A stretch of 45,821 bases of DNA from a virus (Duplodnaviria > Heunggongvirae > Uroviricota > Caudoviricetes), in the IMG/VR virus record IMGVR_UViG_2695420343_000003. One strand, 5' to 3'. Both the position numbers and the translations under genes were made by a program. The notes under the pieces are model-generated. The model made no database searches and was not told where the DNA came from. It worked only from the letters and a program-made list of their open reading frames with translations. Of this stretch, positions 2,603-39,418 are shown one piece after another. Position 1 is the stretch's first letter, and each line of letters starts with the position of its first letter.

Positions 2603-3655
2603 TCAGGAGCCGATATATTCTGGTTTCATATCTGTCAGTGTCGTTTTATACGCCTCATATAATTCTCCCAGATGTGGTCGTGCAGCATTCAGCGTATTTT
2701 CCAGAGCAATAAATTTTTGTTCTGCTTCTGGATCACCTGATGAAGGCAGGTCATTTATCATCGTCTCAATACGGGCAATAGCATTGAGACGGTGATGACG
2801 CTGAACCACTTTTCCTTTAAGTTCTGTGTAGAGAGCGCCAAGTGTATTTTTATGATCTTCCACTTCCTGGCGAAGTGATGTTGTTTCTCCGGTGCTTTGT
2901 GCCTGCTCAATACGTTCACGGAAAGCACTGATCCAGTTTTCCCCGGCATCCTGCTCAATAATTGTTGTTTCACGTTCCGCACGGCAGGCGGATGTATTTT
3001 TATGTTCCTGAACCGGATTAATGATTTTTTCCTGTGGTTCGTCCAGTTCGTCCCGGGTGTACACTCCAAGAATCACTTCAGGGCAATAAAGGCGCGCCCA
3101 GCGTTTCAGTGCCAGATAGGCAAGCTGCTGGCGAGGATCATCGGCCCATAACGTTGAGTTACGTGTTCTGGCCTGCGCCAGAAGTAACTCCAGTACGCGT
3201 GGCTTGCTCTCTCCGCGTAGTGTTGCCTGGACGCGAACTCCGATCCCGTTTTCATCGGCCAGCTTCCAGCCAGGTACACGATATTCTTTCCCCTTGTCGT
3301 TCTTCCTGATTTCAAATTTCCCGATAATTTTTTCCCACGGCCCGAACCAGTCATATTCAATACGCCCGGTTAACGGCCCACGAGTACTGATTACGGCATT
3401 AACCAGTTGCGCTTCATATCCGAGCACACCATTCACAACGAAAGTTTTCTGAGCTACTGCGTAAGGGTTCATTTGCCACTGCATCGCCTGCATGGTGATG
3501 GCCATGCAGTCTGATGGATTTCCCCGGAGGTGTTCCGGTACAGTAGCCATGCCGGAAGCCATTACCTGGGAAAATGTCTGAATTGCAGCCAGGGACTGAG
3601 GGCTGAAAACCGCAACATTAGAGTTAATATTTTCTTGTTGAGTTAATTCGTTCAT
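2603..3655 (-). CDS. Putative single-strand annealing recombinase (RecT-like partner of RecE)
   Basis: 350-aa ORF in the position of recT, directly upstream of recE on the same strand; call is from synteny, sequence differs from K-12 RecT. Confidence 0.5.
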   Translation of the reverse strand: MNELTQQENINSNVAVFSPQSLAAIQTFSQVMASGMATVPEHLRGNPSDCMAITMQAMQWQMNPYAVAQKTFVVNGVLGYEAQLVNAVISTRGPLTGRIEYDWFGPWEKIIGKFEIRKNDKGKEYRVPGWKLADENGIGVRVQATLRGESKPRVLELLLAQARTRNSTLWADDPRQQLAYLALKRWARLYCPEVILGVYTRDELDEPQEKIINPVQEHKNTSACRAERETTIIEQDAGENWISAFRERIEQAQSTGETTSLRQEVEDHKNTLGALYTELKGKVVQRHHRLNAIARIETMINDLPSSGDPEAEQKFIALENTLNAARPHLGELYEAYKTTLTDMKPEYIGS

Positions 3656-8082: not shown

Positions 8083-8586
8083 TTATTGATAGTGTTTTAT
8101 GTTCAGATAATGCCCGATGACTTTGTCATGCAGCTCCACCGATTTTGAGAACGACAGCGACTTCCGTCCCAGCCGTGCCAGGTGCTGCCTCAGATTCAGG
8201 TTATGCCGCTCAATTCGCTGCGTATATCGCTTGCTGATTACGTGCAGCTTTCCCTTCAGGCGGGATTCATACAGCGGCCAGCCATCCGTCATCCATATCA
8301 CCACGTCAAAGGGTGACAGCAGGCTCATAAGACGCCCCAGCGTCGCCATAGTGCGTTCACCGAATACGTGCGCAACAACCGTCTTCCGGAGCCTGTCATA
8401 CGCGTAAAACAGCCAGCGCTGGCGCGATTTAGCCCCGACGTATCCCCACTGTTCGTCCATTTCCGCGCAGACGATGACGTCACTGCCCGGCTGTATGCGC
8501 GAGGTTACCGACTGCGGCCTGAGTTTTTTAAATGGCGGAAAATCGTGTTGAGGCCAACGCCCATAATGCGGGCGGTTGCCCGGCAT
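8083..8586 (-). CDS. insB: IS1 transposase InsB
   Basis: 167-aa ORF matching recalled InsB ([30 protein letters not shown]…). Confidence 0.9.
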
Positions 8587-8780
8587 CCAACGCCATTCAT
8601 GGCCATATCAATGATTTTCTGGTGCGTACCGGGTTGAGAAGCGGTGTAAGTGAACTGCAGTTGCCATGTTTTACGGCAGTGAGAGCAGAGATAGCGCTGA
8701 TGTCCGGCGGTGCTTTTGCCGTTACGCACCACCCCGTCAGTAGCTGAACAGGAGGGACAGCTGATAGAAACAGAAGCCAC
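8505..8780 (-). CDS. insA: IS1 InsA
   Basis: 91-aa ORF matching recalled InsA ([43 protein letters not shown]…). Confidence 0.9.
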
Positions 8781-9744: not shown

Positions 9745-10164
9745 TTACTCCGGTGGGGGATTATCTTTAAGCCTGCCTCTCAAATATTTTTCTACATACT
9801 CATCGATTTCTTTTAGCCGGACTTCAAATAGCTCAATCATTCGTTGTTGTTCTGAGCCCGGTAGCTGGTTAAACAACTCAAGAAGTTTTCGTTGGGATTC
9901 ATTTAACCACAATTCAGAAGATTCCTGTTCTCCAAATAGGAGCTCAGGAGGAGATATGCCAAGTGCCTTTCCCAATACGACAGCGTCATGCACTCCAACA
10001 TTTCTGCTGCCCGCCTCATAGTTACCTATACGCGATTGCGTCCATCCGCAGATTTCAGCAAGTTTTCCTTGAGATAAACCAAGCTTCTGCCTGCGCTCTT
10101 TAAGACGCATTGCAATTTTGTCATTGAGCCTACTAGCGGCAATTTTTTCGTTTTCTTTTTCCAT
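9745..10164 (-). CDS. Phage repressor (CI-like, XRE-family HTH)
   Basis: 139 aa with HTH motif (LGLSQGKLAEICGWTQSRIGNYEAG); divergent from a Cro-like gene across a 96-bp operator/promoter region. Confidence 0.8.
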   Translation of the reverse strand: MEKENEKIAASRLNDKIAMRLKERRQKLGLSQGKLAEICGWTQSRIGNYEAGSRNVGVHDAVVLGKALGISPPELLFGEQESSELWLNESQRKLLELFNQLPGSEQQRMIELFEVRLKEIDEYVEKYLRGRLKDNPPPE

Positions 10165-10260: not shown

Positions 10261-10503
10261 ATGAACAAAATTTCAACATATCGAAAACAGCTTGGGCTGT
10301 CTCAAAGACAACTTGCTGTTCAGTTAGGGTGGATACAAAGCCGACTGGCAAATTACGAAGCAAATTTTCGTACCCCTGGACTAGAGGAGTGCAGAAAAAT
10401 TGTTTCTACCCTTAATCGGCTTGGCGCTCATTGTGGACTTGACGATATATTCCCCCCAGACGGTAAGCATAGCGAAAACAGCATAGGAGCGGTTGATTCA
10501 TGA
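10261..10503 (+). CDS. Cro-like HTH regulator
   Basis: 80 aa; HTH (LGLSQRQLAVQLGWIQSRLANYEA); first gene of rightward operon, GGAGG RBS. Confidence 0.7.
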   Translation: MNKISTYRKQLGLSQRQLAVQLGWIQSRLANYEANFRTPGLEECRKIVSTLNRLGAHCGLDDIFPPDGKHSENSIGAVDS

Positions 10504-10922
10504 AAATCAGGCATGAGCACATCGAATCAGTGTTGTTAGCCCTGGCAGCCGAAAAAGGGCAGGCGTGGGTCGCTAACGCAATTACTGAAGAATATCTGCG
10601 CCAGGGGGGCGGCGAATTGCCCCTTGTACCAGGCAAGGACTGGAACAATCAGCAGAATATCTATCACCGTTGGTTGAAAGGTGAAACGAAAGCGCAAAGG
10701 GAAAAAATTCAGAAACTGATCCCTGCGGTTCTGGCAATTCTTCCGCGCGAGCTGCGTCACCGACTCTGCATCTTCGATACCCTGGAACGCCGTGCATTAC
10801 TGGCGGCGCAGGAAGCGTTGAGTACGGCAATTGATGCGCATGATGATGCAGTCCAGGCCGTTTACCGGAAAGCACATTTCAGCGGTGGTGGGTCGCCCGG
10901 CGATTCTGTCGTAGTGCATTGA
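10500..10922 (+). CDS. ydaT: YdaT-like protein (CII functional analog / putative toxin)
   Basis: 140 aa; MKIRHEHIESVLLALAAEKGQAWVANAITEEYLRQGGGELPLVPGKDWNNQQNIYHRW… matches recalled Rac YdaT. Confidence 0.7.
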   Translation: MKIRHEHIESVLLALAAEKGQAWVANAITEEYLRQGGGELPLVPGKDWNNQQNIYHRWLKGETKAQREKIQKLIPAVLAILPRELRHRLCIFDTLERRALLAAQEALSTAIDAHDDAVQAVYRKAHFSGGGSPGDSVVVH

Positions 10923-10966
10923 TTGAAATTAATCGTGCCGGATTGTTTTGTTCGGTATCAGTTAAA

Positions 10967-11386
10967 TGTAACGCTGCGAGCGTTACAAGGTGAAAACAAA
11001 TGGCTTCAAACTGGATAAAGCTCGAGGTTATTACGCCGGATAAGCCGGAAATATTCAGGCTTGCTGAGATTCTGAATATTGATCCAGATGCCGCATTAGG
11101 GAAGGTTATTCGCTTCTGGGCATGGGCGGATCAACAAATGATAGACGGTAATGCAAATTGTAACGCTCGCGGCGTTACAAAAAGTGCAATAGATCGCATC
11201 ACTTTTATGGCTGGTTTTGCTGATGCGTTAATTCAGGTTGGATGGCTGGTCGAAAATGACGTTGGGCTTTCTCTACCTAACTTTGAACGTCATAACGGAA
11301 AAAGCTCTAAAAAACGGGCGGTTACAAACGAGCGAGTTACAAAAATACGCGAACTGAAACGAAAAGGTAACGCTGCCAGCGTTACA
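10967..11386. repeat. Iteron-like palindromic repeats GTAACGC-N5-GCGTTAC (candidate origin / initiator binding sites)
   Basis: Copies at 10967..10987, 11159..11179, 11367..11386, plus tandem GTTACAAA x2 at 11321..11344; one upstream of and three inside the O-like gene. Confidence 0.55.
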
Positions 11387-11788
11387 CAAACGGATCAAAA
11401 AGCGTTACCAGAGGAAGAGGAAGAGGAAGATCTAAATACTGATCTCCCCCTAAATCCCCCTCGCCAAAAACGAGCGTCTAAAAAATTCGAGCCGGAGGCT
11501 ATTGAGCTGCCCGATTGGTTGCCGGAAACACTCTGGCATGAGTGGGTCCGGTTCAGACAGGCATTGCGAAAACCGATTCGAACGGAGCAGGGCGCTAACG
11601 GGGCGATACGGGAACTGGAAAAATTCCGTCAGCAGGGTTTTACACCTGAGCAGGTGATTCGACACAGCATCGCCAATGAATACCAGGGCCTGTTCGCGCC
11701 GAAAGGTGTTCGGCCTGAGACGTTGCTCCGACAGGTTAACACCGTCTCGTTGCCGGACAGTGCGATCCCGCCAGGCTTCAGGGGGTAA
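11000..11788 (+). CDS. Replication initiation protein (lambda O-like / YdaU-like)
   Basis: 262 aa; position upstream of the DnaC-like gene; internal repeat array and acidic linker (EEEEEED) as in O-type initiators. Confidence 0.65.
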   Translation: MASNWIKLEVITPDKPEIFRLAEILNIDPDAALGKVIRFWAWADQQMIDGNANCNARGVTKSAIDRITFMAGFADALIQVGWLVENDVGLSLPNFERHNGKSSKKRAVTNERVTKIRELKRKGNAASVTQTDQKALPEEEEEEDLNTDLPLNPPRQKRASKKFEPEAIELPDWLPETLWHEWVRFRQALRKPIRTEQGANGAIRELEKFRQQGFTPEQVIRHSIANEYQGLFAPKGVRPETLLRQVNTVSLPDSAIPPGFRG

Positions 11789-11794
11789 CGGACC

Positions 11795-12541
11795 ATGAAA
11801 AATATTGCGACAGGAGGCGTTCTGGAGCGTATCCGCAGACTGACCCCACCACATGTAACCGCCCCATTCAGAACGGTTGCGGAGTGGCGCGAGTGGCAAC
11901 TTGCTGAAGGCCAGAAACGTTGCGAGGAGATCAACCGCCTGAATCGTCAGTTGCGGGTGGAAAAAATCCTGAATCGCTCTGGCATCCAGCCGTTGCACCG
12001 CAAATGCTCGTTTGCGAATTACCAGGTGCAGAACGAAGGGCAGCGATACGCGTTAAGCCAGGCGAAATCCATCGCCGATGAACTGATGACCGGGTGTACA
12101 AATTTTGCGTTCAGCGGAAAACCTGGTACCGGGAAGAATCACTTAGCGGCAGCTATCGGGAATCGCCTGCTGAAAGACGGTCAGACAGTGATTGTGGTTA
12201 CCGTGGCTGATGTCATGAGCGCCCTGCACACCAGCTATGACGACGGGCAGTCAGGCGAAAAATTTTTGCGGGAGCTGTGCGAAGTGGATCTGCTGGTTCT
12301 TGATGAAATTGGCATTCAGCGCGAGACGAAAAACGAGCAGGTGGTACTGCACCAGATTATTGATCGACGGACAGCGTCGATGCGTAGCGTGGGAATGCTG
12401 ACAAACCTGAACTATGAGGCCATGAAAACATTGCTCGGCGAGAGGATTATGGATCGCATGACCATGAACGGCGGGTGTTGGGTGAATTTTAACTGGGAGA
12501 GCTGGCGTCCGAATGTCGTCCAGCCAGGAATTGCGAAGTGA
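11795..12541 (+). CDS. DnaC-like helicase loader (IstB-type AAA+ ATPase)
   Basis: Walker [12 protein letters not shown] and Walker [10 protein letters not shown]; 248 aa. Confidence 0.85.
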
Positions 12542-13805: not shown

Positions 13806-14846
13806 CTAGGAGGCTTTGATTATATTAAGCAAATGTTTTCCAATCGTTTCAGACATCTTCGGAGGGACCGCATTTCCTATTTGACGAGCCCGAGATTGCA
13901 AAGAACCAATAAATTTATAATCCAAAGGAAATGTTTGTAGACACGCTGCTTCACGAACCGATATTGCTCGATTTTGTGTTGGATGTCCAAAACGTCCATT
14001 TGAATAGCTAATACAACGAGTTGTTAGTCCGCTGGCTGGTTTGTCCCAACTCAAACGTCCATATACGTCTGTATGCCCTTTATGGTTACGATGGCATTCT
14101 AAAATCAATTCATCTGGCCAAAATTCTCGACTTCCACCTTCAGGAGTGCATTTTATTCTACGTAAATTAAGCTCTGATAAGCGTGCAGCTTCATGATCAG
14201 GAATACTATTATGCTTTTCTCCTGCTTCTATCTTCGGTAAATTAGCGATCCAGTCCTTTACTGTTGAATAGGGAGTATTTCCAACCCCATGTGTAGGAGA
14301 AGGCAATGCGACATAAAAATCCTTGGATGCAATGAGCACTAATCTTTCTCGCGTCTGTGGTACACCGTACCACGCAGCTGGCATTACTTTATAATCTACA
14401 CTATATCCCTTTGATGAAAGCATTTCTAAAAACATCATGAATGTTCCTTCATTTTTGTTAAACTTTTGCATTCCTGGCACGTTTTCAACAAAAATAAAAT
14501 CAGGCATATAATGCTCTACAAAACGACTGAATTCCTTTAATAGATCTAATCGTGGATCATCATTTTTTTTATTTGAGTTTTGCTTAGAGTACGGTTGACA
14601 AGGCGCACATCCTGAAAAAAGAATGTAATCATTACGATGTTTTTTTACTAACTTGTTTATGGCATTGTTGTCGATTAACCTAATGTCCGAGTTAATAAAA
14701 GCAGCTTGCGGGAAATTTGCACGAAATGAACTGGCTGCATCAACGTCGAAATCGAGGCCAAAAACAATATCCATTCCAGCTTGATGGAAACCTTGGCTGG
14801 TTCCACCACAACCGGAAAAGAAGTCAAACACTTTGATTTTTTTCAT
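13806..14846 (-). CDS. DNA (cytosine-5)-methyltransferase (Dcm-like)
   Basis: C5-MTase motifs: I FDFFSGCGG, IV GCAPCQPYS (catalytic Cys), VI FVENVPGM, VIII QTRERLVLIA, X GNAVPP; AT-rich; 23 bp downstream of the ATPase gene on the same strand. Confidence 0.9.
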   Translation of the reverse strand: MKKIKVFDFFSGCGGTSQGFHQAGMDIVFGLDFDVDAASSFRANFPQAAFINSDIRLIDNNAINKLVKKHRNDYILFSGCAPCQPYSKQNSNKKNDDPRLDLLKEFSRFVEHYMPDFIFVENVPGMQKFNKNEGTFMMFLEMLSSKGYSVDYKVMPAAWYGVPQTRERLVLIASKDFYVALPSPTHGVGNTPYSTVKDWIANLPKIEAGEKHNSIPDHEAARLSELNLRRIKCTPEGGSREFWPDELILECHRNHKGHTDVYGRLSWDKPASGLTTRCISYSNGRFGHPTQNRAISVREAACLQTFPLDYKFIGSLQSRARQIGNAVPPKMSETIGKHLLNIIKAS

Positions 14847-14869
14847 TTTTCCCTCTGCATCCAGAATCA

Positions 14870-16699
14870 CTATCTAATGATACCACGGTCAAGAGCCTGA
14901 GTAATTATTTTTCTTATTTTTATAAATTCAGGCAATTCATTTTTAAGTCTTGCGGTCATCATTTGTTGGAGGCAAAAAATTTCCTCTGCATTTACTTCTT
15001 CTTTATCATACAGGTGTTGCGCTAATAATCTTATTTGATTCTTATACAGCTCTGGATCATTAGAACTCCAGGTCTGTGAATCAATTATTTCTTTTTCACT
15101 TGGCGTAATTGCCTTTTCAATGAGTAATTGTTCGGGAGTATCAAATGGTAAATACTGCACTTTATTGAATGCATACTCAAGCACTTGCCTTTTGAGTCTA
15201 TTAGATTCTTGTTCATTTTTTTTGCCATTACTACCACTGGCATTGATAATTAACTCGCAACCATAATATTTGCACATTGTATTAACTAAATCAGCATCAG
15301 CAATTTCACTAATTCTTACTGGTTTTATTTTTTTGTTTTTATCACCATCAAGTAAAAACAAAATATCATTGCGTTCTACCACAGCGTAACTGGGAAGATG
15401 CTTGCTTAAAATTGTCTCCGAACCACCTGGTATATAACTTACACTAAATGATAAACTTAATCTTTCATAATTTTTAATCGCTTTATCTATAATTGCTTTA
15501 GCTAATTTATCTTCTACAATTATTGTTTTCTTGTTAATATCATGCCCTAGCTCTATAAAAGCTTCATCCGGTGCTATATTTTGAACTATTTTAGCTGTTT
15601 CACTCTCTTCATCAAAAACAAATAATTTAATAGCATCTTTGGGAAGAGTGTTCACAATAACAGGAGAATGGGTTGATATTACCACTTGATGTTTTTTCTG
15701 CTCAACAATAGAGTACAGAACATCCATCATCCTTTTCTGTGCACCAGGGTGAAGTGAAACTTCTGGTTCGTCAAGAAGAATTAATGAATTAGGTTTGGCC
15801 GAATAAATATTGAGTATTAGTGAAACTATTGCAAATTCACCACTTCCAGCAAAAGCTTCTGTATAGTTCAACTTATCAGTTGAAAGTAAAGCGGTTCCTC
15901 CTCTGGTTCCAAATAACCGATGCTCAAGAAATTTAATGACTTTATATTTTTTTCCTAATATAAATGAGACGTGCTCAACTAGTTCTGGCGCCAAGGTTAT
16001 ATTTTTAACAATGGTTTCCGTCCCCCAAAGTCTTAAATTATTTAGCTTTTCATCAAAAGCTTTCTTTATATATTTAGATTTGCTTCTGATATAGTCTTGC
16101 TTTGTAATTAATACACCACTCTTCTTCTTTCTTAATTTAAAATCAGAGTGATACATACATCTATCAAATGCACTTATTTCCGATCTGAAATCTAGGAAAA
16201 CCAATCCCTTCTTGATTTTTTTCCATCTGGTTGCATTACTATTAGCACCCAGATCATCCGAAATACTCTCCATGTTATCACCAACAGATGGTCGACTTGT
16301 TTCCCAATAATCGATTGTTTTCTTGGTAGCATTGATACGCGCTTGGAGTATTTCAACTAAACGGCCATCAGCATTTTTATATCCATATATATATCTAGGC
16401 TTAAGAGAACTGCCATCAGCAAGTTTTAGGTCAGGAAACTCATCTGTTTCAGTTGTGAACCAATAACGAGTTATATTTTTACCATGTGGGCAACCAAATA
16501 GCGCTTTGATAACAGAACTTTTATTAGTTCCATTTTTTCCTACTAAAGCCGTTATAGGGAACTGAAAATCGATCCTTGCATTCTGCTCTATATTTTTAAA
16601 GTATGGAAAACGGATATGTTGTATGAATGGTTCAAATTCACCGTTTTTTAACGCGCACTGGAGTGTTCGAATTTTGCTCTTGTATGCGGAAGTGCTCAT
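14870..16699 (-). CDS. OLD-family ATP-dependent nuclease (ABC-type ATPase + Toprim-like domain)
   Basis: Walker A LVGKNGTNKSS, signature-like AGSGEF, Walker B LILLDEPEVSLHP, H-loop ISTHSP; C-terminal Toprim-like motifs TIIVEDK and FLLDGDKN; very AT-rich. Confidence 0.8.
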   Translation of the reverse strand: MSTSAYKSKIRTLQCALKNGEFEPFIQHIRFPYFKNIEQNARIDFQFPITALVGKNGTNKSSVIKALFGCPHGKNITRYWFTTETDEFPDLKLADGSSLKPRYIYGYKNADGRLVEILQARINATKKTIDYWETSRPSVGDNMESISDDLGANSNATRWKKIKKGLVFLDFRSEISAFDRCMYHSDFKLRKKKSGVLITKQDYIRSKSKYIKKAFDEKLNNLRLWGTETIVKNITLAPELVEHVSFILGKKYKVIKFLEHRLFGTRGGTALLSTDKLNYTEAFAGSGEFAIVSLILNIYSAKPNSLILLDEPEVSLHPGAQKRMMDVLYSIVEQKKHQVVISTHSPVIVNTLPKDAIKLFVFDEESETAKIVQNIAPDEAFIELGHDINKKTIIVEDKLAKAIIDKAIKNYERLSLSFSVSYIPGGSETILSKHLPSYAVVERNDILFLLDGDKNKKIKPVRISEIADADLVNTMCKYYGCELIINASGSNGKKNEQESNRLKRQVLEYAFNKVQYLPFDTPEQLLIEKAITPSEKEIIDSQTWSSNDPELYKNQIRLLAQHLYDKEEVNAEEIFCLQQMMTARLKNELPEFIKIRKIITQALDRGIIR

Positions 16700-37875: not shown

Positions 37876-38115
37876 ATGAGGAAAATCGTTAACCGTTACT
37901 TAGCCGCTGCCGGTAGTGTTATGGACATTATGCCGACTACAGATTACTGGCAATATGCTGCTTCTGGATCTGATTGTCGGGCAATAAGAAGTGATGTTAA
38001 AGTCATTGCAAGTGACATGAACAGAGTTATCAGGTATGAGTTCAAAACCCCGCAAGCAGGCGGCCGTTCTCAAAAAGCATCAGGAAAACAAAGCGTCGCA
38101 AAAAGCCGTTCCTGA
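37876..38115 (+). CDS. Hypothetical small protein (79 aa)
   Basis: ATG preceded by GGGAGGGG; overlaps the next ORF by 80 nt in another frame. Confidence 0.35.
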   Translation: MRKIVNRYLAAAGSVMDIMPTTDYWQYAASGSDCRAIRSDVKVIASDMNRVIRYEFKTPQAGGRSQKASGKQSVAKSRS

Positions 38116-38608
38116 TTCGGATGGTATCGACGAAGCTATTGATTCCTCGGAATATGATGAGTCTCAGGAAGTAGTGGAAAAGCTGTCTGCAGTTGCCAAC
38201 CTTGATCCTGAGCTAAAATCGAAGTTAACACCTGAACTTCTTGAGAGAGTTTCTAAGAACCCGAAGGTTATTGCCATGTTTCAGCAGGAGTCTTTTCAGG
38301 GACCACTCCCACCTCCTGCTATGCTCTTACAATATAATCAAATATTACCCGGCGGCGCTGAGAGAATTTTCAGGCTAACCGAAAAAGAGCAAGAGCATAG
38401 GCATAAGACGCAAAGTGATGCATTACTTGGTGCGGTTTCACGCGACAAACGTGGGCAATGGATGGGATTTTGCATTGCAATGGTAGTGCTTATAATGGCT
38501 GCGTTTTTTGCTAATCGCGGTAACACTTGGTTCGCAGGTACTCTTGCTACTTTAGATCTCGTAGGATTAACTACAGTGTTTGTTTATGGTAGGAAGAAAC
38601 CTAAATAA
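38036..38608 (+). CDS. Predicted membrane protein (DUF2335-like), moron
   Basis: 190 aa; acidic N-terminal half, conserved-looking segment PLPPPAMLLQYNQILPGGAERIFRL, two C-terminal TM helices; followed by terminator. Confidence 0.5.
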   Translation: MSSKPRKQAAVLKKHQENKASQKAVPDSDGIDEAIDSSEYDESQEVVEKLSAVANLDPELKSKLTPELLERVSKNPKVIAMFQQESFQGPLPPPAMLLQYNQILPGGAERIFRLTEKEQEHRHKTQSDALLGAVSRDKRGQWMGFCIAMVVLIMAAFFANRGNTWFAGTLATLDLVGLTTVFVYGRKKPK

Positions 38609-38623
38609 TCCATACATCCTTTC

Positions 38624-38647
38624 AAACCCGCTTCGGCGGGTTTTTTG
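38624..38647 (+). terminator. Rho-independent terminator closing the tail-embedded moron unit
   Basis: cccgcttcggcggg + TTTTTT. Confidence 0.65.
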
Positions 38648-38665
38648 CTTTCTGGAGCCTACTAA

Positions 38666-39418
38666 ATGGCCGTATCTGACCAGACCCGCAGCGGCGACCT
38701 TGCCGAAACATTCAAATCTGAACGGGAAACAACAAAGAACCAGATCCGTGTCGCCTTGCCTGGCATTATTCAGTCATTCGATCCTGATGCGGTGACGGCA
38801 GTTGTGCAGCCTGCTATCCGTTCGGTTGAAAAGGATAATGACGGCAACCGCATTACCCAAAATTACCCATTGCTGGTGGATGTGCCAGTGGTATTCCCGC
38901 GCGGTGGAGGATGCACGCTAACGTTCCCAGTTAAAGCCGGTGATGAATGTTTGATGATTTTTGCCGATCGTTGTATTGATTTCTGGTGGCAGAACGGCGG
39001 GATACAGGAGCCTGTTGATGACAGAATGCATGATTTATCGGATGCGTTTTGTATTGTCGGTCCCCAGTCGCAGGCTAGGAAGATTAGCGGTATTAATACC
39101 AGTGCCACACAGTTGCGTAGTGACGATGGCAGCACCTATTTTGAGCTTAATCCTGATACCGGGAAAATTAAAATTGTCGCTCCGGGTGGTCTTGATGTGG
39201 TTGCCCCTCTGGCTGATTTTTCTGAGAAAGTAACCATTCATGGCCTGTTAACCTGGATGGGAGGCATGGTGGGGTCTGTTGTTTCTGGTGTGGCTTCAAA
39301 AATCACTGGTGCTGTTGAGTTTTTGGGTAGCGTGAAGGCTAACGGCAAGCCAATCGATGATACGCACACTCATGGTGGTGTTCAGCGCGGTGGAAGCAAT
39401 ACCGACGGAGTAAACTGA
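38666..39418 (+). CDS. Baseplate spike / assembly protein (gpV-like)
   Basis: 250 aa at start of baseplate cluster; Gly-rich C-terminus. Confidence 0.5.
   Translation: MAVSDQTRSGDLAETFKSERETTKNQIRVALPGIIQSFDPDAVTAVVQPAIRSVEKDNDGNRITQNYPLLVDVPVVFPRGGGCTLTFPVKAGDECLMIFADRCIDFWWQNGGIQEPVDDRMHDLSDAFCIVGPQSQARKISGINTSATQLRSDDGSTYFELNPDTGKIKIVAPGGLDVVAPLADFSEKVTIHGLLTWMGGMVGSVVSGVASKITGAVEFLGSVKANGKPIDDTHTHGGVQRGGSNTDGVN

Follow-up and report, generated by a model that had tools for sequence, protein, structure and literature searches.

Conserved 19-bp palindromes in the initiator gene of a Rac-like prophage: the probable recognition element of a gene-embedded replication origin

Palindromes and the initiator gene

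Copies of a palindrome lie in and just upstream of a putative replication initiator gene in the viral DNA studied here. They raise the question of whether they are binding sites of the encoded initiator, forming a replication origin embedded in its own gene, or whether they serve instead as operators, as hairpins or as targets of some other protein. The window, by which we mean the whole stretch of 45,821 bp that was analyzed, is a Rac-like lambdoid prophage. Its genes include an integrase, RecT and RecE, DUF1627 and DUF977 genes and an IS1 insertion. Upstream of the initiator gene lie a leftward repressor gene (9745-10164, minus strand), a Cro-like gene (10261-10503) and a YdaT/cII-like gene (10500-10922). 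The nearest phage records are vB_EcoS-666R9 (95%) and the Rac phage from E. coli 442/2 (93%), in which the initiator ORF is named "replication protein O" or ydaU. Of 5,426 complete E. coli genomes, 690 contain the stretch 10900-11500, with the gene annotated as "hypothetical protein".

A pattern scan of the whole window found three perfect copies of GTAACGC-N5-GCGTTAC (GTAACGCNNNNNGCGTTAC), at 10968-10986, 11160-11178 and 11367-11385, and no further copies even when two mismatches were permitted. The three palindromes with 7-bp arms and a 5-bp spacer reported in the original prediction are thereby confirmed as real and perfect. Shuffling gave an expectation of 0.15, and at least three copies were obtained in 0 of 100 shuffles. 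Each site is an inverted repeat of about 19 bp, composed of two 7-bp arms and the spacer. In the first two copies the arms reach 8 bp (TGTAACGC/GCGTTACA), the second extending to 9 bp (11158-11180), and in the third they are 7 bp long. The positions first given for the palindromes were right as to location and took in one extra paired base on each side. The full sites are spaced by 192 bp and then 207 bp. We call them U, A and B; like the half sites described below, they are given without strand.

Site U (10967..10987, TGTAACGC-TGCGA-GCGTTACA) lies between the cII/YdaT-like gene and the initiator ATG, in the non-coding gap of 77 bp from the stop of the upstream gene (10922) to the ATG at 11000. 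It is located 13 bp 5′ of the ATG and directly adjoins the ribosome-binding site AAGGTG (10987-10992). Site A (11159..11179, TGTAACGC-TCGCG-GCGTTACA) covers codons 54-60, which encode the peptide CNARGVT, and site B (11366..11386, (G)GTAACGC-TGCCA-GCGTTAC(A)) covers codons 123-129, which encode GNAASVT. One copy precedes the ATG and the other two lie inside the ORF (11000-11788), the arrangement originally described. The same ORF contains three half sites. Two of them, 5′ of site B (11320..11343), are copies of GTTACAAA at 11321-11328 and 11336-11343, 15 bp apart, and correspond to the tandem half sites that had been noted at 11321..11344. The third, GCGTTAC at 11402..11408, lies 23 bp past the right arm of site B. 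In the window as a whole the heptamer GCGTTAC occurs 13 times against 4.5 expected, and 7 of the 13 fall inside 10968-11408.

The initiator gene (11000..11788, plus strand) encodes a protein of 262 residues with a weakly winged-helix-like N-domain (residues 1 to about 100), a basic helix, an acidic linker and a domain similar to the DnaT C-terminal domain (residues 170-262). The gene had been described as O-like, and this description did not survive. A lambda O homologue was rejected on three grounds: the protein hits no Pfam family at E<=0.01, its N-domain belongs to no family in Pfam or NCBIfam, and its C-terminal domain is DnaT-like. The sole lambda-O-type match, to PHROG 678 ("O-like"), is limited to residues 102-236. 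PHROG 2509, "replication initiation protein", matches over the full length (E=8e-89). Residues 170-262 are similar to the C-terminal domain of E. coli DnaT (phmmer, PDB 2ru8, E=9e-5), with which the protein also has the extreme tail VNTVSxPDSxIPPGFRG in common. The similarity to DnaT is restricted to these residues, the DnaT N-terminal domain being absent, and the NCBIfam DnaT model scores 16 bits against a cut-off of 201. The Pfam DnaT domain, PF17948, is significant in the homologues from Pseudomonas phage VW-6S and epsilon15 and was not reported for the window protein.

An AlphaFold2 model of the N-domain alone (pLDDT 74) contains helices at 16-25, 29-48, 61-68 and 73-80 and a hairpin at 84-91. 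The rest of the protein is modeled as a basic helix (104-121), a disordered acidic linker and a three-helix C-terminal domain with helices at 176-225. Matches of the N-domain to winged-helix proteins are weak and include a plasmid RepA_N initiator and the winged-helix domains of ORC/MCM proteins. The next gene (11795..12541, plus strand) encodes a DnaC-like, YdaV-like helicase loader with IstB_IS21 and Bac_DnaA ATPase domains (PHROG 50; NCBIfam PRK12377, E=5e-153, and DnaC, E=1e-90), presumed to be the partner of the initiator. With the PHROG match, the DnaT C-terminal domain, the weak winged-helix matches and the DnaC-like loader downstream, the gene product looks like an initiator.

Conservation of the sites and selection on the DNA

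The initiator family is large. A profile search returned more than 4,600 proteins at E<=1e-5, from Proteobacteria, Planctomycetota and Verrucomicrobiota. By tblastn, the N-domain is found in 59 phage records, among them E. coli phages TL-2011b and ZX5, Enterobacter phage BUCT554, Klebsiella phages, Xanthomonas phage CP2, Pseudomonas phages VW-6S and PAN70, Ralstonia and Vibrio phages and Salmonella phage epsilon15. A scan of one genome per species gave 80 loci, from Enterobacterales, Pseudomonas, Xanthomonadales, Burkholderiales, Planctomycetota, Verrucomicrobiota and others.

Sites A and B occupy equal positions in the gene in phages of E. coli, Enterobacter and Klebsiella (about 65% amino acid identity), and their position is also kept in Xanthomonas, Pseudomonas and Ralstonia phages at 41-48% identity. 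The same holds for most of the 80 species-level genomes, Planctomycetota included, with relatives down to 41-53% protein identity. In nearly all members of the clade whose proteins start with MAG or MAS, site A is found at +149, +152 or +161, and in relatives from this clade site B is found at +338 to +394. The check proposed originally was conservation of the repeats in homologous genes: A and B are retained at the same positions to about 41-45% protein identity, and the absence from close homologues that was to speak against the idea was not seen.

The palindromes could in principle be a by-product of an encoded peptide motif, NAxxVT, or of chance, and Asn51, Ala52 and Val59 are indeed invariant or nearly so in protein alignments. 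The synonymous positions, however, are fixed as well. At site A the valine codon is GTT in 64 of 66 genes, as against 356 of 1090 valine codons (33%) elsewhere in the same genes; asparagine is AAC in 66/66, and the preceding codon ends in T in 66/66. These genes are related and the counts are not independent, although they come from several phyla and range in GC content from 45 to 67%. The reading frame across site B is frame 2 in most loci but frame 1 in 14 others, giving the peptide GNAASVT in the window and VTPTAL in TL-2011b; what is conserved here is the DNA, not the peptide. In the AlphaFold2 model, moreover, the site A peptide is a low-confidence loop between helices and the site B peptide is part of the disordered linker. 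Site U does not code for protein at all, and three copies are far above the chance level given earlier. Forced codons, the use of two frames, a non-coding copy, loop or disordered peptides and arms that are fixed next to free spacers show that selection acts on the DNA and not on the peptide. The palindromes are a real feature under strong selection as DNA, and we attach next to no weight to an origin in peptide constraint or chance.

The contrast between arms and spacers is evident among 58 unique close relatives, in which variation affects 4 of the 42 arm positions and 10 of the 15 in the spacers (Fisher p=5e-5). All three perfect sites are kept in 53 of the 58. Compared with their surroundings in these close relatives (63 of 453 positions variable), the arms are not significantly less variable, and the strength of the case for conservation of the DNA comes from the distant relatives.

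Site U behaves differently from A and B in being clade-specific. It is a feature of most of the sampled Enterobacterales with site A at +161, occurring in full at -31 to -43 in E. coli/Shigella, Serratia, Yersinia and Pantoea; at other distances it occurs in a few further lineages, such as at -92 in Stenotrophomonas. The full site is missing from the phages of about 65% identity (TL-2011b, BUCT554, ZX5 and Klebsiella phi3.2) and from most distant relatives, and degenerate copies are present in some Verrucomicrobia. Site U may have a role in regulation rather than in the firing of an origin. One Verrucomicrobia clade of the initiator family has degenerate sites only, which counts against the reading that we favour below. 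The distance between A and B ranges from 189 to 288 bp, and an analysis of distinct distances gave no significant helical phasing. Sites A and B flank the conserved core of the N-domain, so that the distance between them may be set mainly by where an embedded site can be accommodated in the protein.

Coordinated site switches and the candidate reader

Two clades carry a different site sequence at both intragenic places. In a clade of Vibrio phages both site positions have GTCAC..GTGAC; in one member (L178) the site is GTCACGC-N5-GCGTGAC, one base per arm away from the main class. In both copies this switch combines a non-synonymous change in one arm, AAC to CAC (Asn to His), with a synonymous change in the other, GTT to GTG. 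In the epsilon15 clade the sequence is GTCCGC-N7-GCGGAC, located at +65 and +344 in about 60 non-identical loci. The site is 19 bp long in every class. Within a genome the copies always agree, and all arms change together. Such coordinated changes fit a common trans-acting reader of the duplex sequence, and not independent hairpins in RNA or DNA.

Hairpins nevertheless deserve consideration, since each copy folds with -10 to -14 kcal/mol on either strand. The copies could then function in RNA or single-stranded DNA, as elements of mRNA stability or translation, as antisense terminators or as single-strand initiation signals, and not as duplex sites. T-rich runs follow sites A and B on the minus strand, where they were flagged as terminator-like, and the loops would be formed by the spacers, which are hypervariable. 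The number of terminator-like matches on the minus strand does not, however, exceed the shuffle expectation. On the plus strand no T run follows the stems, and no Rfam family was matched, a permissive threshold yielding noise only. The loops are free to vary, whereas those of protein-recognized hairpins are usually conserved. Furthermore, the arms are the same in all copies of a genome and invariant across phyla, whereas structure alone would allow separate stems to drift separately, and the switches hit all arms of both copies. We consider a role as hairpins highly improbable.

If the sites are read as duplex DNA, the reader could be the initiator or some other protein, either of the host or encoded by the cII/YdaT-like, DUF1627 or DUF977 genes of the phage. 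That a single sequence is so conserved across phyla could mean a conserved host factor. The hosts themselves, however, belong to several phyla, N-domains of different clades go with different site sequences, and the motif is missing from the rest of the phage genomes examined. Upstream of the initiator gene the neighbours differ wholly among carriers (a methylase, a KilAC antirepressor, Roi, Rha or YdaT), and the downstream genes are various, so that across unrelated genome contexts the initiator gene is the only constant neighbour of the sites. The encoded protein is consequently the most economical candidate for the reader. We think it likely that this protein binds the sites, and very unlikely that a host factor or another phage product is the binder.

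The three site classes track the clades of the N-domain, and the residues that differ between classes cluster at positions 45, 47, 99, 109 and 113. With only two independent switches, these class-linked residues are a lead and not a test.

A further indication that N-domain and sites belong together comes from the Rac prophage of E. coli K-12. Its YdaU has only the last 124 residues in common with the window protein (81% identity). The N-domain of K-12 YdaU is a DUF1376 domain, which the window protein lacks, and hhalign did not relate the two N-domains to each other. The corresponding place in K-12 ydaU is taken by repeats of another type, the TGTTCAAACA type, clustered within about 110 bp (2972-3088 of locus L001). 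The cluster is followed by the stretch GATCTAAA...CCCCCTAAATCC, which is the same as window 11429-11459. In the window, this stretch (11429..11459, no strand) reads GATCTAAATACTGATC and then CCCCCTAAATCCCCC, and lies just past the left end of the shared C-terminal module, for which the protein alignment with K-12 YdaU starts at codon 139 (about 11414). The contrast between the two genes indicates that the N-domain and the repeats behave as a single module that is exchanged as a whole, while the C-terminal module is shared.

A candidate gene-embedded origin and its relation to known systems

Site B is the centre of a symmetric array of half sites, arranged in relatives in steps of about 12 bp. 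To the left of its left arm, TAAC is found at 12 bp in 43 of 70 non-identical loci and at 24 bp in 8; to the right of its right arm, GTTA is found at 11-12 bp in 49 of 70 and at 23 bp in 12. The window has a looser version, its half sites lying at 11321, 11336 and 11402. The GTTACAAA half sites vary more than the full sites: position 11338 is T in 45 and A in 13 unique sequences, and the change from T to A turns GTTAC into GTAAC. A GCGTTAC-like half site about 45 nt 5′ of site B is also present in Serratia, Yersinia, Pantoea and Rouxiella.

Past site B lies a polypurine tract, AGAGGAAGAGGAAGAGGAAGA or (GAGGAA)3 (11410..11430, plus strand), which encodes the acidic linker EEEEEE. The purine run after site B measures 21 nt in the window and is accompanied by two GATC sites. 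In a set of 72 distinct genes, the 90 nt that follow site B contain a longest purine run of median 15 nt and maximum 32 nt, versus 8 nt elsewhere in the gene. Most clades have a (GAGAA)n repeat here, and Enterobacterales have (GAGGAA)n. The peptide encoded by the repeat depends on the clade (EEEEEE or REEKRRE), and the purine character is kept. AGA accounts for 91 of the 148 arginine codons after site B as against 63 of 1013 elsewhere, and this holds in GC-rich Pseudomonas genomes too. The tract is a candidate unwinding or single-strand-binding element. Alternatively, the AGA-rich, polypurine tract could be a charged (acidic) linker born by slippage and not a selected DNA element; its length differs by 6-nt indels between close relatives. 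GC content is 40-47% across about 11280-11440, with a strong excess of A on the plus strand, and this interval contains no sharp AT-rich block beside the sites. No DnaA box was found in the region. GATC occurs six times in 11081-11444, compared with a window mean of one per 320 bp.

We infer from these features that the palindromes are probably binding sites of the encoded initiator and form an origin within its gene. Its parts would be the three palindromes, the half sites surrounding site B and the polypurine tract that follows them, and it would be embedded in the first half of that gene. The winged-helix-like N-domains would bind the 19-bp duplex sites as dimers, contacting the arms and not the 5-bp spacer, and extra protomers would occupy the half sites beside site B. 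The purine-rich tract and a GATC- and A-rich stretch (11410-11445) would then open, the DnaT-like C-terminal domains would cover the single strand, and the DnaC-like product of the next gene would deliver host DnaB. Sites U and A would be auxiliary, serving in looping or higher-order assembly or as roadblocks that limit transcription of their own operon. The binder, the unwinding, the loading of helicase and the activity of the origin are all predictions. We think that this locus is probably the origin of the prophage.

The main alternative is that the sites are operators only, through which the initiator or another regulator throttles the ydaU-ydaV operon by roadblock or looping while replication starts elsewhere. 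Many initiators, plasmid Rep proteins among them, control their own synthesis. Site U is clade-specific and adjoins the ribosome-binding site, the wide spacing of the sites resembles that of auxiliary operators, and a strong AT-rich element is absent. A promoter scan, however, detected no sigma-70-like promoter near or overlapping any of the three palindromes. The sites are conserved across phyla along with the intragenic half-site array and the purine tract, and N-domain and repeats are swapped as a unit, as at lambdoid origins. The case of Pusillimonas sp. T7-7 also speaks against operators alone. Its "plasmid" record is a whole circular phage genome of 41 kb, in which the motif (the one type of repeat searched for, with at most one mismatch) occurs twice only, both times inside the initiator gene. 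The initiator and the DnaC-like gene are the sole evident replication-initiation genes of this phage. A minimal replicon that would map the origin was not found in the plasmid collection, which gave two records, Pusillimonas sp. T7-7 and E. coli CP088505.1, of which the first was examined. Overall, we judge a function as operators alone unlikely. Three other candidates were rejected. Against a rolling-circle nick site within the initiator gene, as in P2 and phiX174, stand the lack of any nuclease-family match and the DnaC-like loader as partner. For packaging the sites lie in the wrong part of the genome. For restriction or methylation, a target of 19 bp would be too long, and it would not be expected in the initiator gene alone.

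The palindromes most likely serve as the recognition element in a so far undescribed variant of the gene-embedded phage origin. A literature search of incomplete coverage, which gives no proof of novelty, found no published description of these sites and no mapped origin for the initiator family. More tentatively, and as a broader proposal that we hold to be possible but by no means the better bet, the locus may represent a previously unrecognized class of phage and prophage origins that spans phyla. In this class an initiator that fuses a sequence-specific winged-helix domain to a DnaT-type domain for binding single strands would recognize 19-bp palindromes within its own coding sequence, tolerated where a loop and a linker are encoded and read in either of two frames. 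It would open or occupy a polypurine repeat of 5- or 6-nt units, from which its charged linker is translated as well, and would load DnaB via a DnaC-like partner without PriA or PriB.

If the favoured reading is true, it would define the origin, and the code by which the initiator recognizes it, in a large set of temperate phages that has not been studied, among them epsilon15-like and TL-2011b-like phages and the Rac-like prophages of pathogenic E. coli. Such a code would be easy to test, since two natural specificity classes lie a single base change apart. The locus would also be a clean case of a cis element that constrains codon choice and reading frame within a gene, and would connect initiation at a specific origin with the DnaT branch of the primosome.

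The closest parallel is the lambdoid O origin (ori-lambda and those of the Stx phages P27 and 933W). There, too, initiator-binding repeats, which in our case are predicted to be such, lie inside the gene of the initiator, the helicase-loader gene comes next, and the N-terminal module is exchanged together with the repeats while the C-terminal module is shared. The original prediction had regarded the palindromic form as unusual; it is not, because the iterons of lambda are themselves imperfect inverted repeats of 19 bp (PMC7466680). Palindromic iterons of the lambdoid type are not new, and what is new here is the spacing of about 200 bp, the polypurine tract and the initiator family. The suggestion of lambdoid-style initiator sites holds in part: the comparative evidence favours recognition by the initiator, but the sites form no tight iteron cluster, and the leader copy is clade-specific. 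Lambdoid origins have 4-6 contiguous iterons, in contrast to full sites 192 and 207 bp apart, and here one site lies 5′ of the gene. A polypurine repeat takes the place of a clear AT-rich region, and the window protein, with its DnaT-like C-terminal domain, is not an O homologue. Finally, lambdoid sites differ between close phages, whereas the site sequence in this family is near-constant across phyla.

The Rac prophage of K-12 (racR-ydaS-ydaT-ydaU-ydaV-ydaW) has been reported to have an active origin, oriJ (PMC3945230). It is syntenic with the window in its repressor, cro-like gene, YdaT, initiator, DnaC-like YdaV and YdaW (DUF1627), and has a repeat cluster in the middle of ydaU. It differs from the window in the DUF1376 N-domain and the TGTTCAAACA-type repeats, neither of which is present in the window initiator.

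DnaT (primosomal protein I), which acts in PriA-PriB-DnaT restart, resembles the initiator in its C-terminal domain and tail and in having an acidic linker before that domain; its N-domain is unrelated. The C-terminal domain of DnaT coats lagging-strand single-stranded DNA in the preprimosome and forms filaments, and its acidic linker binds PriB (PMC13377028). In the initiator, a sequence-specific duplex-binding module would replace the structure-specific targeting of DnaT by PriA and PriB.

A further parallel is oriL of Bacillus phage SPP1 (PMC5737612), located in gene 38 (G38P, G39P, G40P). As is proposed for the locus described here, it is an origin inside the gene of an origin-binding protein, followed by loader and helicase genes. 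It is set apart by unrelated proteins, direct-repeat boxes beside an AT-rich region and a Gram-positive host.

Variable spacers and adjoining repeats at the putative origin

The three GTAACGC-N5-GCGTTAC palindromes enclose 5-bp spacers at 10975-10979 (site U, in the leader), 11167-11171 (site A) and 11374-11378 (site B), the last two lying inside the initiator gene. When 58 unique close relatives were compared, these spacers proved to be hypervariable, with differences at 10 of the 15 positions. By comparison, 63 of 453 positions vary in the sequence around the palindromes (10900-11409; Fisher p = 8e-6), and 32 of 124 do so among third-codon positions. The pattern suggests either that palindrome centres are mutational hot spots or that the spacers are subject to gene conversion between the copies or to diversifying selection.

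A purine tract lies 3' of site B (11410-11430) and is also found in relatives, with a length that differs even among close ones. Its repeating unit is five nucleotides long in most clades, (GAGAA)n, and six in the Enterobacterales, (GAGGAA)n. As a consequence of the tract, AGA is locally the main Arg codon (61% versus 6%). Six GATC sites occur within 364 bp (11081-11444), compared with a window average of one per 320 bp, and three of the six fall in only 52 bp (11393-11444). This GATC-rich stretch, which adjoins the putative origin, could be sensitive to Dam and SeqA.

Corresponding regions in other genomes

In the middle of the ydaU gene of the E. coli K-12 Rac prophage (locus L001, 2972-3088), a TGTTCAAACA-type motif is present in five direct and two inverted copies, and an A-rich stretch with GATC sites comes after the cluster. 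The repeats look like the iteron cluster of oriJ; the RefSeq record of K-12 carries no annotation for them.

In a Verrucomicrobia clade of the N-domain family, here called 'MRRPW' (L118, L140, L150-L152, L154, L156, L158, L162, L164-L167 and L169), the palindromes are kept in degenerate form only; one such version is GAACGCTCCAAGCGTTA at +356. This points either to drift of the recognition sequence in this clade or to a different location of the sites.

Locus L262 (NC_015459.1, Pusillimonas sp. T7-7, 41,205 bp) was deposited as a 'plasmid' and represents the entire circular genome of a temperate phage, including genes for integrase, terminase, capsid and tail. The initiator homologue and a DnaC-like ATPase are its only evident replication-initiation genes, and the purine tract lies at offsets ~400-440 of the initiator gene (38043-38816, minus strand).

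A longer form of the initiator

A common variant of the initiator (proteins P0011-P0058) is 374-380 aa long. Its first ~150 residues are 84-98% identical to the 262-aa query, with 57-65% query coverage. At the DNA level, the match of L023, L026, L049 and L059 to the window stops at ~11445 and restarts at ~11480, with ~340 extra bases in between, an insertion that we assume accounts for the longer proteins. Pfam assigned no family to the inserted part.

Neighboring genes of the prophage

An IS1 insertion (8083-8780, minus strand) lies to the left of the prophage immunity region and comprises InsB (8083-8586) and InsA (8505-8780), both assigned to Pfam IS1 families. Directly after the replication module, and in the opposite orientation to it, are genes for a C-5 cytosine DNA methylase (13806-14870, minus strand) and an AAA_15/AAA_21 ATPase (14870-16699, minus strand); the pair (13806-16699) resembles an accessory or defence-type island that was inserted here. 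Vibrio phage 1.211.A and epsilon15 also have a C-5 methylase, directly upstream of the initiator.
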